Under the pieces are notes generated by a model. That model made no database searches, was not told the origin of the DNA, and saw nothing but the letters and a program-made list of their open reading frames with translations. A DNA stretch of 64,000 nucleotides. Source: a virus (taxonomy: Duplodnaviria > Caudoviricetes). This document shows positions 2,856 through 59,119 of the stretch, piece by piece (position 1 is the first letter of the stretch; every line of letters begins with the position of its first letter). The DNA is taken from the IMG/VR virus record IMGVR_UViG_3300021133_000001, positions 32,001 to 96,000 of that record. One strand, given 5' to 3'. The position numbers were made by a program, and so were the translations under genes.

Positions 2856-5189
2856 TTAGAACTTGAATGTGACGTCAGCTGTTAGGTTAGTATCAGTTAA
2901 CGTTGCTTGCTTTTGTTGACCAGCACCAATAGTACCGGAAATGTACTTTGTTGGAGTAGCTTGCAAGTTAAGCTTGTATGTTGTAATGCCATCAATACCC
3001 TTTGACTTAGTAGGTGTTAAGTAACCACCTTCAGCAATAACTCTGAAAGCATCCCCGAACTGATAGTCAAAGCGTAAGCCACCTTCTGCTGCAGCACGAG
3101 TTACCTTAGCAGCATCAAATGATTGAGCAGTATAAGCATCGCCTGTTTCAGTAATAGCATCAAGTGAGCTTGTTTCGAAACGACCACCAATGAAAGGAGC
3201 GAAACCAAAGTAACTCTTTGAATATAAACGCTCATTTAACCAGATGTCTTTACCATTACCCTTACCGGCATTAGCATAGTTTAGAGCAGCTAATGTATGA
3301 GTATTAGCAAAACGGTCATAAGCAAAACCAAGATCAGACTTTAATACTAATAGATTGTTAAACGTGGTTAAGTTATATAGACCTAAGTGATGCTTTTGTA
3401 ATGTACCAGTAGCTTGATCCCCGTTAATATTAGCATTAACAAAGTCATACTTTATACCGAATAGAACATCGGCTGTAACAAATGATTCAGCACCGATAGT
3501 AAATGTATTGCTTGAAGTTTTATACGTATCAGTCGTATTGCTACTTGTACGTGTATATGTTAAATAAGAGTTCCAACCATCATCTTTATTAGCATTCCAA
3601 GTACCGCCATAGTTGCGATCTAATGGATTAGAATCAACGAGCATATTATAACGACGGCTTGCAGCCTGTAGGTATGAATATTGATCGATACGAGTACCGT
3701 AATTAGCTACAGAACTTGTTACTGCTGTTGTGTTACCAGTAGTAACAATTTTAGCAGTTGATACTGAAGTATTTTCTGTAACTACTGGAGCACTATATGT
3801 TACTAATGTTGGTGTAGTGCCATCAGCATATACTGTAGTAGTAACAGCTGTATTAGTAGTAACATTAGTTACAGGTGTAACTGTTGTAGCAGTAGTTATT
3901 ACTGGTGTAACAGTAGTAACTGTAGTCGTCTTAGCGATGTTTAACACTTTAGTATCAGCTGACTTTGCTTTAGCTTGTGAATAAGCAGTGGTTGAAGCAG
4001 CTGTACCATTTACACTTGCATATGTGGTTGTTGGATTACCAAATACTGTTTGACTAGCAACGTTCTGGGTTGTTGTAGCTGTGCTGTATAAAGCATTAGC
4101 TGTTGTAACAACTGCATTGTTAACTACATTATCTGTAGTTGTTGGTGCACCGTAATATGTACTAATAAGATTACCATTAGCATCTTTAGTAACTGTAACA
4201 GGTGTAACTGTTGTAGCTGTATCTACTGGGGTAGTAGTTGTTGTAGTTGTTAGCTTATAAGTCTTAACTACTGGATTGTTACTTGCATCAACACTATTAG
4301 CAGTTGAATAAGCAATAGTAGCACCAACTACCGCGGTACCGTTTTTAGTAACTGTAGATGTTTGATTGGATGTAGTAGCTACTGTATAAAGAGAAGAGCT
4401 ATTAGCTGTTGAAACTGCAAATGATACATTTGTATTAGATGTTGGTGTACCATATACTGTACTAATAGTATTACCTGTACTATCTGCAATAACAGTCATC
4501 GGCGTCGTCACTGTAGTAGTAGCAACTGGAACTGTTGTAGTTGTTAATACGTTTAAGTTAGTAGTAACAATAGTTGAACCACCACTTGTAGTAGTAACAG
4601 GGGCATATGAATTAGCTAATGTTACGATAGGTGTTCCGTTTGATGTAGTTACAGCTACTGCATTAGTCGTAGTAGCAACTGTAGAAGGTGTTACTGCTGG
4701 TGTGGTAGTTACGACAGCGTTACCTGTTACAGATGTTGTTGCTCCGTTAACAGTTGTCCAGGTTGTCGGTGTAATTGTTGTTACTGTATCAAGATATGTT
4801 GTAGCAATAGTAGCACCATTAGCTGTTGATGTAACAGTGCGAGGTGCTGTTGATGTTGTAGTAACATTACCTGTTGTGACAGTCTGTACTGGTACTGTAC
4901 CATGGTTTACAGTGACAACTGGCGAGCCGTTTGTTGTTACTGAACTATTATCACTATATAAAGTGACTGTAGTAGGGATTGTCGTGGTAGTTGTATTAAC
5001 ATATGTATTATCAATAGAGAAACCGTAAGCGTTAGTTGCAACTACATCTACTGGAGTAGTTGTTACGGTTACTATTGGAGTGCCGTTTGTTGTACTAACA
5101 ACTGTTGGTGAGCCACCGCCCGCCATAAGTGAAGTACTAACTGCAAACGTCAATATAGTTAATGCGATTAGTTTTAGGATTTGTTTCAT
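2856..5189 (-). CDS. Autotransporter (type Va-like) outer-membrane protein with Thr/Val-rich passenger
   Basis: Start re-assigned to MKQILK (ATG 5189): Sec signal peptide, about 480 aa of T/V-rich repeats (SNGTPIVT, TTTTxPV), amphipathic beta-strand C-terminal domain ending VTFKF. Confidence 0.75.
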   Translation of the reverse strand: MKQILKLIALTILTFAVSTSLMAGGGSPTVVSTTNGTPIVTVTTTPVDVVATNAYGFSIDNTYVNTTTTTIPTTVTLYSDNSSVTTNGSPVVTVNHGTVPVQTVTTGNVTTTSTAPRTVTSTANGATIATTYLDTVTTITPTTWTTVNGATTSVTGNAVVTTTPAVTPSTVATTTNAVAVTTSNGTPIVTLANSYAPVTTTSGGSTIVTTNLNVLTTTTVPVATTTVTTPMTVIADSTGNTISTVYGTPTSNTNVSFAVSTANSSSLYTVATTSNQTSTVTKNGTAVVGATIAYSTANSVDASNNPVVKTYKLTTTTTTTPVDTATTVTPVTVTKDANGNLISTYYGAPTTTDNVVNNAVVTTANALYSTATTTQNVASQTVFGNPTTTYASVNGTAASTTAYSQAKAKSADTKVLNIAKTTTVTTVTPVITTATTVTPVTNVTTNTAVTTTVYADGTTPTLVTYSAPVVTENTSVSTAKIVTTGNTTAVTSSVANYGTRIDQYSYLQAASRRYNMLVDSNPLDRNYGGTWNANKDDGWNSYLTYTRTSSNTTDTYKTSSNTFTIGAESFVTADVLFGIKYDFVNANINGDQATGTLQKHHLGLYNLTTFNNLLVLKSDLGFAYDRFANTHTLAALNYANAGKGNGKDIWLNERLYSKSYFGFAPFIGGRFETSSLDAITETGDAYTAQSFDAAKVTRAAAEGGLRFDYQFGDAFRVIAEGGYLTPTKSKGIDGITTYKLNLQATPTKYISGTIGAGQQKQATLTDTNLTADVTFKF

Positions 5190-5196
5190 ACTCGTA

Positions 5197-5204
5197 TATT
5201 TATA
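5197..5204 (-). promoter_or_regulatory. T4-type late promoter TATAAATA
   Basis: Exact TATAAATA 7 nt before the autotransporter ATG. Confidence 0.75.
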
Positions 5205-5259: not shown

Positions 5260-5288
5260 AAAAAAAGAGCTCCATTTCTGAAGCTCTT
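5260..5288 (-). terminator. Intrinsic terminator
   Basis: GAGCTTCA-GAAA-TGGAGCTC then T-run; sits just after the -1-frame stop at 5294. Confidence 0.85.
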
Positions 5289-5328
5289 GAATATTAAAAC
5301 TTCCAACCTTTAACTGTGAAGTTCGAAA

Positions 5329-5380
5329 CCCAGCGTACCGCGCTTGTTGCTAAACGGGTTACGCTGGTTGTTATTTTCCC
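5329..5380 (-). promoter_or_regulatory. Candidate programmed -1 ribosomal frameshift signal
   Basis: In-frame slippery heptamer G GGA AAA (5380-5374), 6-nt spacer, then a long GC-rich stem CCAGCGTA...TACGCTGG. Confidence 0.65.
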
Positions 5381-6435
5381 AGCGTACCGAGTTGTGTTTC
5401 TACTGCAGTTAAACGATCCGCAATAGCATCAAGTGCTGGATCAGCTTGTACTGCATCAGCAACTTGTGCAACAACAGCAGGAGCAACTGTATCAACACCA
5501 GTAGCAGAAGCAACAACATTAGCAACAGCAGCTGTTACTTGGTCTTGTACTGCTGCAGCAGGAGCAGGTAGTGCAGCAACTGCATCAGTAATAGCAGCTG
5601 TTACAGCAACTGGATCAGTTACAGTAGCAGGGTCTGCATTAACAACAGCAGCAACAGCTGTCGATACAGCAGCAACAACATCAGGATGATCTGCTGCAGG
5701 TGCTTGTGCAACATCAGCAACAACGTTAGTTATAACAGTTGCAGCAGCAGGAACATCTGCGCTTGGGCTATCTGCTACTACGCTTGCAGCAACTGCTTGA
5801 GCTGTAGCTTCTGGTACTGGATCAGCTGCAACGATATCTGCAACTGTATTAGTTATTGGGCAAGCAGCAACTGCGTCAGCAACAGCGGCTGTAGTAGCAT
5901 CGCTTGGAGCTGTGCCTGTAGCAGCTGTAACAATAGCAGCAACAGCATCAGTAGCAGCTTGAGCTTGAACAGGATCTGTAATAGCAGGAGCAGCAGCAAC
6001 TGCATCAGTAATAGCTGCTGTAACTGCTACTGGATCTTGTACTGTAGCAGGATCAGCTGTAACTACAGCAGTAACTGCGGCACCAACAGCTGCAGCAACG
6101 TCTGGGTTAGCAACAGCAGGTGCAGCGGCTTGAGCAGCAACTACATCTGATACAATATCAGCAGCAGCAGGTACTGCAGCAGATGGACTTAAAGCGACGA
6201 CAGCATCAACTGGAGCTGGTGCTTGGGTAGCTGGAGCAACTACAATAGCAGCAACTGCATCAGCAGCTGGTTTTGTGACGAGATCGTTTACTGTTTTTTC
6301 AACAATAGTAAGACGAGTATCTAGTTCTTGGATGCTAGCAGCATCAACGCCAGGAGCCTGTAGGCCTGCCAGCGTGGTTAATTTGGTTTCTACCGCAGTT
6401 AAACGTGCGGCTAAGGATTCAATTGTGTTTGCCAT
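5371..6435 (-). CDS. Ala/Val/Asp/Pro-rich protein with terminal coiled-coil motifs; probable -1 frameshift isoform ending at 5294
   Basis: RLTAVET motif at both termini, two internal repeats of about 100 aa, no aromatic residues; TAAATA late-type promoter upstream. Confidence 0.8.
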   Translation of the reverse strand: MANTIESLAARLTAVETKLTTLAGLQAPGVDAASIQELDTRLTIVEKTVNDLVTKPAADAVAAIVVAPATQAPAPVDAVVALSPSAAVPAAADIVSDVVAAQAAAPAVANPDVAAAVGAAVTAVVTADPATVQDPVAVTAAITDAVAAAPAITDPVQAQAATDAVAAIVTAATGTAPSDATTAAVADAVAACPITNTVADIVAADPVPEATAQAVAASVVADSPSADVPAAATVITNVVADVAQAPAADHPDVVAAVSTAVAAVVNADPATVTDPVAVTAAITDAVAALPAPAAAVQDQVTAAVANVVASATGVDTVAPAVVAQVADAVQADPALDAIADRLTAVETQLGTLGK

Positions 6436-6456
6436 AGGTTCAAATAATATTTACAC

Positions 6457-6485
6457 AAAAAAAAGCTCCGAGGGTGTCGGAACTT
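6457..6485 (-). terminator. Intrinsic terminator ending the glycan cluster
   Basis: AAGTTCCGA-CACCC-TCGGAGCTT followed by T-run. Confidence 0.75.
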
Positions 6486-55498: not shown

Positions 55499-58400
55499 TT
55501 AACTTGCTGATAAGGATTGTTTTAGTGTATTTACTTCAGCTTTAAGCTCTTTCACGGCTTCAATTAATAATGCTGTTAAACGAGTATAATCAATACCTAC
55601 GCAAACTTCTCCTGCACTTGTAGCACTTGTTGATACTACTTGTGGTAGTACTAATTTTACATCTTCTGCAATAAGACCTATATTATTAGTATCAGATACA
55701 TCATATGAACTATCATACATTACACCTGATAGCTGTTCAGTAACTGTTAAAGCATTGCCTATTGTGGTTGTTAAAGGTCTAATATTGGTTTTGTATCTCT
55801 TAGATGAAGTAGTAGTATATGATACAGCAGTAACATCTCCGCTTGAAGCTAAAGTAATGTGTACACCCGCTCCTGACCCTGTACCAAAGTAAGCAGTGTT
55901 TGTGAATAGAGATATGTTGTTTTGAGTTAAACCACCAGCATTAGTAATACCAGCTGCACCTATATAAGCACCGTAACCGCTAACATTACCACTACCATCT
56001 ATACCATAACCGGTAGAAGCAATACCTAAACCACCCGGGCTAGTATTAACACCAGCAAAGTTTACATATGAATTTGTGTTTAAGGTTTGGTTTGCAGTAA
56101 TTCCTTGAGCACCGGTAGCGCCTTGTGCACCAGTAGAACCCTTACTACCTTGAGCACCAGAAGCTCCTTGAGCTCCAGTTGCACCTTGAGCTCCGGTAGC
56201 GCCTTGTGGTCCGGCACCCTGAGCACCCTGAGCACCTTGAGCACCCTGAGCACCTTGTGCGCCTGTAGCTCCTGTAGAGCCTTTTAATCCAGAATAGCCT
56301 GAATAACCTGAAGCACCTTGTGTGCCTGTAGCGCCTTGTACTCCGTTGACACCAGAATAGCCAGAATAACCAGAAGCACCTTGTGCTCCTGTAGCTCCTT
56401 GAGGCCCGGTACCTTGAGCTCCGGTCGCGCCTTGTGCACCCTGTGCACCTTGTAGACCTGTAAAACCTTGAGGTCCTACTGGACCGGAGTAACCAGAATA
56501 ACCACTTGTACCTGTAGTACCTTGTGCACCTATAGCGCCTTGTGCTCCGTTAATACCTGAAAAACCCGATATACCACTAAAACCGCTTATACCAGTAAAG
56601 CCTGAAATACCAGTAAAACCAGAATAACCTGAAATACCGCTAAAGCCGCTAGTACCGCTGAAACCAGAATAACCAGAAATACCACTGAAACCAGAAAAAC
56701 TTGAATAACCACTATATCCTGATATACCAGATGTTCCAGATATACCGCTAAAACCACTTATACCGGTATAACCTGAATAACCAGAATTACCTTGTGCGCC
56801 TGTAGCTCCTTGTACTCCGTTAATACCTGAATAACCAGAAACACCTGAAGCTCCTTGCGCGCCTTGCGGTCCAGTACCTTGAGCGCCAGTAGCGCCTTGT
56901 GCACCTACAGGCCCACTGTAACCACTATAACCAGAAGTACTATTACCACTAAAACCAGAATAACCAGAACTGCCTTGAGCGCCTTGTGGGCTACCTGCAG
57001 CACCTTGTGGTCCTTGATTACCTACAAAACCTTGAGGTCCTTGAGGGCCGGAAAAACCAGAATAACCAGAAATACCTGAAGTTCCTTGTGCGCCAGTAGC
57101 GCCTTGAGCACCTTGTACGCCCATAATACCTACACTACCTTGAGTACCCTGTACACCTTGAGCGCCTACTGCACCGGAAAAACCAGAATAACCAGAAGTA
57201 CCAGCATTACCTTGCGCACCTACAGAACCGACCGAACCTTGTGCACCTGTTGCTCCTTGAGTTCCCTGTGGACCAGTAGCTCCTGTTGAACCTTGTCCGC
57301 CAGTAGCACCTTGAGCTCCTTGAGCACCTTGTGCGCCAATAAAACCTTGTACACCAGACAATCCTGAGTAACCCGAGTAACCAGATGTACCGGAAGCACC
57401 TTGAGCACCCTGTGAACCTTGATTACCTTGAGCTCCTGTAGAGCCGTTTATACCTGAATAACCAGAAGGACCGACAACACCTTGTGCACCTTGAGCTCCT
57501 GTAGAGCCTTTAGCACCAGAGTAGCCAGAAACCCCTGAACCACTAAAACCAGAAATACCGGTATAACCAGAAATACCTGAAAAACCACTATAGCCTGAAA
57601 TACCACTAAGACCTTGTGCGCCGATTTGGCCACTAATACCGCTAAACCCGGAAATACCGGAAGTACCACTATAGCCAGATATACCACTAAACCCACTTAT
57701 ACCGCTAAAGCCTGATTGACCGCTAGCTCCAACAGCACCACTAAAACCCGATGTACCGCTAAAGCCTGATTGACCGGAATAACCTGAAAAACCAGATAAA
57801 CCTAAACCACTAAAGCCTGATACACCGCTAAAACCCGATGTACCGCTAAAGCCTGAAAAACTTGAATAACCTGAATAGCCAGAACCACCTATACCACTAA
57901 AGCCTGAAAAGCCAGAAGCACCGGAAACACCTTGACCGATAGGTGTACGTATTACTGTATATACTGAGCTACCATTATATTGATAGGAAGCTGAAACAGG
58001 CGTGGAACTTGATGTATATGCTGCAATCTGTAACAAGATACGATCAGTAGCAGATAAAATAGTTACATTATTTGATACAGCCCCTACTTTTTGAAATGTT
58101 GATACTGTATCTGTTACTACACCAGAATCTGCACTTAAGATAAATGCACTTGTGGCACTAGTTGCCATTGAATATGTATAGACACTGAATACAAAATTAA
58201 CTGGGCCACCTAGAGCGTAACGGTAAAATTCAATATCCCATAATCCAGCTGGTATTTCTACTACACCAGGCTCTCCAGGAGGTGTTAAATACCAACCAAA
58301 TGCACTAATACCGTTTGTATTAGTAATTACAACTTGGTCATCATTTACAGTTGTACCGCCGCCACCTGGCTGTAAAGCCATTACTTCAAACACTGCAGGG

Positions 58401-59119
58401 TTTTGGTCACTCGTTACTTCTTCTAAAAAGTATGTTCTACCATATAAAGAACCACCTGCAGGACCAGAAACACCAGACCAACCACTAATACCTGAAAAAC
58501 CAGAAGCACCTGAAAAACCAGAAGTACCATTTATACCAGAAAAACCAGAAGTACCGGTGTAACCAGACACCCCACTAAAACCAGACCAACCACTTGTACC
58601 ACTATAACCTGATTGCCCGGTGTAACCGCTTATACCAGAAAAGCCTGATATACCAGAAAAGCCTGATTGACCGCTATAACCTGTAAAACCACTTGCACCA
58701 CTAAAGCCAGAAGTACCGCTAAAACCGGAAACACCTGTATAACCACTTATACCACTGTAACCGCTAAAACCAGAGCTACCTTGAGCTCCTTGTGTGCCTT
58801 GAGCACCTTGTGGACCGGTAGCACCCTGCGGACCAGTACCTTGAGCACCAGTTGCACCTTGAGCTCCCTGTGCACCATTAATACCATTTGTGCCATTAGT
58901 ACCGTTTTGACCGGAGTAACCTGATAACCCAATACCTTGTGCACCTTGTGAGCCAGTTAAACCACTGTAACCTGATTGACCACTATAACCTGAAGTACCG
59001 CCAGGAGCGCCTTGCACGCCTGGAAAACCAGAAGCACCAGAAGCACCAGAATAACCGGAAAAACCTGAAGCTGCTGCAACAGGTACCATCTCAAGATTTG
59101 TTATTGTTGTTAGTGCCAT
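55499..59119 (-). CDS. Collagen-like tail fibre (GAQ and G[FYI]S repeats) with S74 chaperone
   Basis: Over 200 Gly-X-Y triplets around one globular insert; SSKRYKTNI...IGLIAEDV...[15 protein letters not shown]. Confidence 0.85.

Follow-up and report, generated by a model that had tools for sequence, protein, structure and literature searches.

Programmed −1 ribosomal frameshifts close to the 3′ ends of genes are the nearest described parallels to the element analyzed here. In Bacillus subtilis, cdd undergoes a −1 frameshift on CGA_AAG at the end of the gene, resulting in a 13-residue extension. MinD and FtsA harbor C-terminal amphipathic helices that target them to the membrane. The G-T slip site of phage lambda is G_GGA_AAG, which is the commonest heptamer of the present family. 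This heptamer is among the most shift-prone in Escherichia coli (PMC5009743), and references in the same source place a −1 frameshift near the 3′ end of the capsid gene in T7 and T3 (gene 10A/10B) and in Lactobacillus phage A2 (gp5A/5B). The element in question terminates a gene on a 64,000-nucleotide (nt) stretch (the window, to which all window coordinates refer) of the 140-kb IMG/VR virus record IMGVR_UViG_3300021133_000001, which is estimated to be 44% complete. The window, ascribed to a large and uncultured phage from a lake, is phage-like, encoding collagen-type tail fibers with Peptidase_S74 chaperone domains and many glycosyltransferases, and it contains T4-type late-promoter boxes. 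Judged from sequence, the end of this gene is very probably a programmed −1 ribosomal frameshift cassette, which is the best explanation overall, and the narrower claim that frameshifting would produce a long isoform is, if anything, firmer. Confidence in the whole statement, including an anchoring role for the extension, is lower. Approximately 100 relatives share the anatomy of the signal, with conservation seen in RNA, in codons, and in the peptide; the slip itself, its rate, and the target of the encoded helix are inferred from these features.

The gene lies on the minus strand, as do all features of the cassette, and its 0 frame (5371–6435) encodes a 354-residue protein. It ends CTC GGT ACG CTG GGA AAA TAA, such that the last two sense codons complete the slippery heptamer G_GGA_AAA (5374–5380). 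The 0-frame stop TAA (5371–5373) is directly 3′ of the heptamer, inside the 6-nt spacer that precedes the putative stimulatory hairpin. This hairpin (5330–5367) spans 38 nt and has a predicted folding energy of −20.9 kcal/mol (RNAfold). Its 8-bp outer stem is formed by the arms CCAGCGTA (5360–5367) and TACGCTGG (5330–5337), and the 22-nt interior between them forms an inner stem. The entire 146-nt 3′ region folds with a z score of −5.4 relative to shuffled sequences. The −1 extension (5294–5374) consists of 26 open codons (5297–5374) followed by TAA (5294–5296), and the T-S-V and R-W residues of this tail are encoded by the arms of the hairpin. The tail is basic (net +4) and contains two Trp and two Phe, while the 354-residue product has no aromatic residue (F, W, or Y) at all. 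The hydrophobic moment of the tail is 0.52, a value matched by 0 of 300 shuffles. An intrinsic terminator, composed of a G+C-rich hairpin and a T7 run (5260–5288), is placed right after the −1 stop and not after the 0-frame stop; the stimulatory hairpin lacks a T run, and the true terminator is located further 3′. The sequence-only reading of this locus had reported the CTG GGA AAA TAA end with its in-frame heptamer, the long hairpin six nt downstream, the 26-residue open −1 frame stopping at 5294, the position of the terminator, and the aromatic-free product with four aromatics in its extension. All of these hold, down to the residues quoted for the tail.

Considering open reading frames (ORFs) of at least 100 residues, the window contains 92 in-frame heptamers of the form X_XXY_YYZ, where Y is A or T. 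Two of them have a strong downstream hairpin and two sit on the last two codons of a gene, and both properties coincide only at 5374–5380. Such rarity within a single sequence is unusual and not decisive alone; the comparative data decide. The sole other in-frame heptamer with a strong hairpin, G_GGT_TTT at 57743–57749 on the minus strand (−16.3 kcal/mol), is found inside a collagen-like tail-fiber gene (55499–59119) and probably reflects chance in a G+C-rich repeat. Read-through of the stop was also considered as a route to an extended product and was rejected because the 0 frame contains several more stops.

The gene belongs to an unannotated family in T4-like and huge freshwater phages, of which approximately 100 distinct 3′ ends were sampled. 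A protein search yields 68 homologs, mostly 214–215 residues in length and all unannotated, nearly all of which end in L-L-G-K or L-L-G-N. The comparison at the DNA level took in 54 viral-contig loci and 80 metagenomic loci, as well as the contigs of three closer relatives; many of the family loci reside on contigs of 200–525 kb. A tblastn search of 50,697 deposited phage genomes returned no cultured relative. The heptamer was scored in 90 distinct 3′ regions and conforms to G_GGR_AAN on the last two codons in 85 of them, with the codons GGA AAG in 41 loci, GGG AAG in 20, GGA AAC in 13, GGA AAA in 10, and GGG AAA in one. With few exceptions, the heptamer is immediately followed by a stop, and the stop codon is TAA in 79 of the 90.

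The choice of codons at the heptamer departs from that of the gene bodies. The Leu codon that supplies X ends in G at 41 of 44 sites, compared with 19% in gene bodies, and the Gly codon is GGA or GGG at 44 of 45 sites, compared with 18% (GGA) and 1% (GGG) in gene bodies. Conservation of the amino acids is therefore not the explanation, and the synonymous sites of the heptamer appear to be under selection. The feature common to all variants is G_GGR (i.e., re-pairing of the P-site tRNA-Gly), while the A-site codon varies; for AAG, AAA, and AAC in the A site, re-pairing on AAA is possible.

The close IMG/VR relatives L002 (97% identity) and L003 (85% identity) both keep G_GGA_AAA and an open −1 frame. 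Their 0-frame stops shift, with L002 reading AAA TCG TAA and L003 reading AAA TAG. The outer stem is kept in both via a compensatory TA to TG/CA change, and the 22-nt interior, unrelated in sequence and identical in length, again makes an inner stem. A direct repeat, GGTACGCTGGG, was considered as the target-site duplication of an inserted element; this idea was rejected because the repeat is not kept in L002.

Across the wider family, the hairpin starts 4–9 nt 3′ of the heptamer in almost every locus. Folding z scores below −2 are found for 35 of 45 loci, compared with 1 of 45 equal-sized control segments taken just upstream. In the commonest register (CCAGCG/CGCUGG), 89.5% of cells pair, as opposed to 19–47% when the partners are slid. 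This stem displays double changes from G-C to A-U along with many G-U intermediates, indicating that the element acts as RNA and not as DNA. Other subfamilies place unrelated stems at the same position. The hairpin of the window clade is much stronger, with energies of −19 to −22 kcal/mol versus approximately −9 kcal/mol elsewhere in the family, and may thus support a higher frameshift rate.

In the subfamily of the window, the hairpin loop has expanded. Relative to tails with the T-S-V-K-R-W core, four extra residues are present in L059, seven in the window, L002, and L003, and 11 in L062. Every insertion is a multiple of three nucleotides, is free of stops, lengthens the stem, and adds a whole number of helical turns to the peptide. 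Such a pattern would be expected if a stimulatory hairpin and an amphipathic helix had to be written in one and the same stretch of nucleotides.

In all 85 loci with G_GGR_AAN, the −1 ORF extends for at least 11 codons. Of a subset of 38 loci, only three, all with broken heptamers, have a −1-frame stop within 11 codons, versus 33 with such a stop in the +1 frame. In none of 45 loci is an ATG, GTG, or TTG present in the −1 frame after the last stop 5′ of the heptamer, and that stop is two to seven codons away in most of them. Thus, the −1 frame can be entered only within the last four codons of the gene. The tail itself opens with GTA, ATA, or CTA followed by ATN and has no conserved start. Heptamer conservation, stem covariation, and an open −1 frame in homologs had all been named beforehand as tests of the sequence-only reading. 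Each is borne out, with the additions that entirely different stems occupy the same distance in some subfamilies and that the open frame encodes a conserved amphipathic peptide.

The tails are 11–28 residues long across the family and comprise 78 distinct peptides, a typical example being VISGVKRWFSKLF. Among the 68 distinct tails without inserts, positions 1, 2, 5, 8, 9, 12, and 13 are hydrophobic in 97–100% of cases, with Trp the commonest residue at position 8 and Phe at positions 9 and 13. Lys, Arg, and Gln predominate at positions 6 and 7, and the tails are nearly devoid of acidic residues. The resulting i, i+1, i+4, i+7, i+8, i+11, i+12 spacing is that of a predicted amphipathic α-helix, and the hydrophobic moments of the family tails are about twofold those of shuffled peptides. 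Both the position-specific pattern and the moments agree with the amphipathic extension that had been proposed from the window alone. Positions 9, 12, and 13 fall 3′ of the hairpin in the CCAGCG-type subfamily, which is the commonest; therefore, their hydrophobicity is not explained by RNA structure.

A second conserved element of approximately 45 nt directly follows the hairpin and helix in about half of the loci L005–L142 (e.g., L022:~3185–3230). It forms two small hairpins and provides the last codons, K-S-G/D-T-K/R, and the stop of the 18-residue tails. The element is kept even when the hairpin and helix are deleted (L142 and L051) and is missing from the window. No Rfam family matches either the frameshift hairpin or this second element.

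Lineages in which the heptamer is broken provide a further comparison. In L026 and its copies, the heptamer reads A_GGG_AAG, and tail codon 6 has undergone a CGA to TGA nonsense change. L030/L031 (A_GGA_AAG) and L055 (A_GGA_AAA) also have a stop at codon 6. The helix is deleted in L051 (G_GGC_AAG), while both hairpin and helix are deleted in L142, which ends L-L-V-K and has no Gly codon. In L058, a frame change just upstream of the heptamer leaves no tail. Overall, six of the eight lineages whose heptamer is broken have lost the tail, compared with none of the 85 loci in which it is intact, suggesting a strong, though not perfect, association between the two losses. L058 has a separate peculiarity in that its variant P0004 gene (L058:1–2400) has at least six tRNA genes around it, with five located upstream and one just downstream.

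On the basis of these features, a mechanism can be proposed. Most ribosomes would read through CTG GGA AAA and stop at TAA, releasing the acidic, aromatic-free, helical 354-residue protein. A fraction would slip back by one base with GGA in the P site, AAA in the A site, and the hairpin at the mRNA entry channel, such that tRNA-Gly re-pairs from GGA to GGG and tRNA-Lys from AAA to AAA. The adjacent stop codon may assist the slip. Slipped ribosomes would then read 26 more codons and stop at 5294–5296, just before the terminator, yielding a long isoform that ends in a basic, Trp/Phe-rich amphipathic α-helix and could tether a subset of subunits to a surface. The long form may be a minor isoform made at a fixed ratio, with the helix as its anchor.

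The decoding step may differ among heptamers. G_GGG_AAG, present in 20 loci, is only partly canonical because the slipped A-site tRNA-Lys meets GAA, and it therefore sits uneasily with a standard tandem slip. Either a tandem slip tolerates a first-position G-U pair, or slippage occurs mainly at the P-site tRNA-Gly with the aid of the stop and the hairpin. Both routes yield the identical tail.

Several observations weigh against a functional frameshift, and some of them bear on the alternative in which the hairpin serves only to stabilize, process, or terminate the mRNA at its 3′ end, the open −1 frame is a by-product that is never translated, and the 354-residue form is the only product. Hairpins are common after genes, and in L030 and L055 the hairpin persists despite a closed −1 ORF, which indicates that it may have a second role (e.g., in mRNA stability). 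The arms of the commonest stem alone dictate T-S-V and R-W, so peptide conservation is partly RNA-driven, and the synonymous/nonsynonymous contrast among the frames is modest (0.177, 0.139, and 0.086). Kinship among the sequences also means that the raw counts overstate their independence, L138 and L139 keep an intact tail with A_GGG_AAR, frameshift efficiency could be near background, and a function for the tail is suggested by its composition alone. A purely RNA-level role for the hairpin is nonetheless improbable. It does not account for the near-invariant hydrophobicity of positions 9, 12, and 13 outside the CCAGCG-type stem, for a −1 frame open in every locus with an intact heptamer while the +1 frame is mostly closed, for the atypical heptamer codons, or for insertions that add exactly 4, 7, or 11 residues, and the hairpin lacks a T run, with the real terminator placed beyond it. 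The diversity of stems and peptides, together with several independent losses, argues that the signal is real.

If, as preferred here, the tail is translated through a ribosomal slip, the question becomes whether it is used. Shift-prone heptamers arise by chance (the 92 in-frame cases of the window are an example), and several lineages have lost the tail, as would be the case if frameshifting were incidental leakage and its product tolerated without being used. The strict amphipathic pattern, the in-phase insertions, the atypical heptamer codons, and the persistence of a hairpin in phages with different translation-start signals instead point to purifying selection on signal and product; incidental leakage is a shade less probable than a solely RNA-level role. 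The least probable of the alternatives, and a very unlikely one, has the tail made by polymerase slippage on the GGG/AAA run or by independent initiation or re-initiation after TAA. Short homopolymer runs (GGG, AAA, or AAAA) do occur at the site, and compact phage operons are known to employ re-initiation after termination. However, productive RNA polymerase slippage usually needs runs of roughly seven or more bases, and those here have three to four. The contigs from RNA libraries show no indel at the A/G run of the heptamer, although contigs can hide rare variants. Initiation within the −1 frame is disfavored by the lack of upstream start codons in the 45 loci and of a conserved start among the first tail codons, while ribosomal −1 slippage is characteristically marked by a hairpin 4–9 nt downstream.

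An additional structure is specific to the window clade. An upstream copy of TACGCTGG (5379–5386, minus strand), read as the codons T-L-G, is an alternative partner of the 5′ arm of the hairpin (5360–5367). This pairing has predicted energies of −16.3 kcal/mol in the window, −11.9 kcal/mol in L002, and −15.7 kcal/mol in L003 and would leave the heptamer looped out; the ACG or TCG codons on which it draws in this clade are rare. It is missing in the wider family (mean z of 0.09). A bistable switch was considered as part of the core mechanism and was not accepted because the pairing is confined to the window clade and the segment would be inside the ribosome at the moment of the slip. The alternative pairing may be a clade-specific tuning of the rate or a by-product.

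Weak evidence for expression comes from three lake metatranscriptome libraries, in which contigs span from 5300, 5339, or 5384 to 6423–6428 and end there. The contig from RNA library X6 reaches 5300, crossing the heptamer, the hairpin, and almost all of the −1 ORF. A contig from a DNA library continues across both intergenic regions. The ends of the RNA contigs weakly suggest a monocistronic late transcript from a TGTAAATA box to the terminator, with carry-over of DNA a possible source of the contigs. The putative late promoter box TGTAAATA (6448–6455, minus strand) is located approximately 13 nt before the ATG and is a weak candidate that differs by one mismatch from the T4-type late promoter TATAAATA; L002 has the exact TATAAATA at the same upstream place. 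A second version of 118 nt within the Ala/Val-rich repeat region of the gene (5593–5710), with nine differences, is present in contigs of both RNA and DNA libraries and reflects either strain variation or cross-mapping between internal repeats.

Translation initiation differs within the family. In the window clade, a Shine–Dalgarno sequence is absent (window 6436–6480), and a TATAAATA-like box approximately 13–20 nt before the ATG is found instead. In contrast, the genes of the 215-residue family (L004–L018 and others) are preceded by a palindrome and by strong AAGGAG ribosome-binding sites. Thus, the cassette would work in phages whose hosts differ in initiation habits, and its distribution suggests that it is common to phages whose hosts belong to different phyla.

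The 354-residue protein is acidic (isoelectric point of approximately 4), with Ala, Val, Thr, Pro, and Asp accounting for 77% of its residues. It is predicted to be all-helical and has heptad segments of the R-L-x-A-V-E-x-K-L type at both ends. An AlphaFold2 model of a 215-residue relative is likewise all-helical, with a predicted local distance difference test score of 73. The protein has no Pfam, NCBIfam, or PHROG match, and PDB profile searches, the ESM atlas, and fold searches of BFVD and the PDB return nothing usable for assigning a function by homology. A match to the coiled coil of reovirus sigma-1 (E = 0.87) was discarded as not significant. The protein appears to be a late product that is probably associated with assembly or with the virion and may be an oligomeric coiled coil.

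The genomic neighborhood varies with the type of phage. On T4-like contigs of ordinary size, the gene is flanked on one side by g22 (scaffold) and g23 (major capsid protein) and on the opposite side by a g3-like gene, uvsY, and uvsW, whereas on huge-phage contigs it is preceded by a metallophosphoesterase and a GT4 or GT2 glycosyltransferase. In the window, it is preceded by a glycosyltransferase block and a UDP-galactopyranose mutase. The 252-residue upstream neighbor was compared with the proteins of the huge-phage loci and is neither their metallophosphoesterase nor their GT2. A gp23 gene was not found in the 140-kb record, only about 44% of the genome being present. Downstream, a gene on the minus strand (2856–5189) encodes a 777-residue protein with an N-terminal segment resembling a signal peptide; the gene is conserved in L002, an exact TATAAATA box (5197–5204) precedes it, and the protein has no Pfam, NCBIfam, or PHROG match.

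The surface to which the tail binds can be suggested only by analogy. Tethering of a subpopulation of subunits to the cytoplasmic membrane, in the manner of MinD and FtsA, is the most likely role and a plausible, still tentative one. Next in rank is binding to a protein surface such as that of the capsid or prohead, which is rather doubtful; the tail would otherwise do something else. A more encompassing hypothesis, speculative when all of its parts are taken jointly, is that the frameshift is a stoichiometry device that would equip a set fraction of subunits with a membrane- or capsid-binding helix. Hairpin and helix would be written in the same nucleotides, and the loop would grow only by whole turns (4, 7, or 11 residues), each of which lengthens the stem and perhaps retunes the rate. 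The doubly coded RNA/peptide module would be kept across phages of hosts with and without Shine–Dalgarno initiation. If this hypothesis is true, G_GGG_AAG would represent a natural slip site driven by the P site.

The family is of interest for several reasons. Annotation pipelines call only the short form of the protein, which is widespread in freshwater phages, and as a result, none of the database entries seen includes the long isoform. The approximately 100 natural variants of a single cassette have heptamers of four types and several hairpins unrelated to one another, show expansion of the loop and independent loss, and constitute ready comparative data on the co-evolution of slippery sites, stimulators, and trans-frame peptides, and they include the non-canonical G_GGG_AAG and hosts without Shine–Dalgarno pairing. 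Should the tail serve to anchor the protein to a membrane or capsid, the family would be a compact case of recoding that sets the fraction of anchored subunits. The tail also offers a first functional handle on a featureless protein encoded beside a capsid gene or glycosyltransferases. Literature searches found no description of the family or of its frameshift site; a programmed −1 frameshift at the 3′ end of a late phage gene is a known device, and its occurrence in this family is unannotated and new.

In signal, the closest known system is lambda G/GT. Like lambda, the family would employ a −1 slip on G_GGA_AAG in a late gene to make nested products with a common N-terminus, presumably at a set ratio. 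The sequence-only reading had recognized this logic while setting the protein apart from tail chaperones, and the comparison supports both points. In contrast to lambda, the gene is not found between the tail tube and tape measure genes, its neighbors being g22, g23, a g3-like gene, and uvsY, or a metallophosphoesterase and glycosyltransferases. Its tail is 11–28 residues long and not a domain of about 100 residues or more, and the predicted slip falls on the two final codons, ahead of a strong hairpin. Searches of Pfam, PHROG, the PDB, and BFVD show no similarity to tail-assembly chaperones in sequence or fold.

In logic, the closest systems are T7 10A/10B and phage A2 gp5A/5B, in which a shift at the gene end likewise adds only a C-terminal extension to a fraction of a late and, in the present case, probably structural protein. 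In phage A2, a stem-loop reportedly follows the slippery site. Those proteins are major capsid proteins with extensions of 53–85 residues, while the present family has a separate neighboring gp23 gene and an extension consisting of a single short helix. B. subtilis cdd is similar in that a −1 slip just before the stop adds a short C-terminal extension of comparable length. It differs in having an upstream Shine–Dalgarno-like stimulator and an extension with no known role, whereas the present family has a downstream hairpin and a tail that appears to be under clear peptide-level selection.

The tail itself most resembles the helices of MinD and FtsA, with approximately 10–15 residues at the extreme C-terminus, a hydrophobic and aromatic face, a Lys/Arg face, and no acidic residues. 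In MinD and FtsA, the helix is encoded in frame on every molecule; here, it would be present only on frameshifted molecules, and membrane binding is a prediction. What appears to distinguish this family from all of these systems is that the shift would yield just one short amphipathic helix, encoded together with the hairpin that would stimulate the shift.

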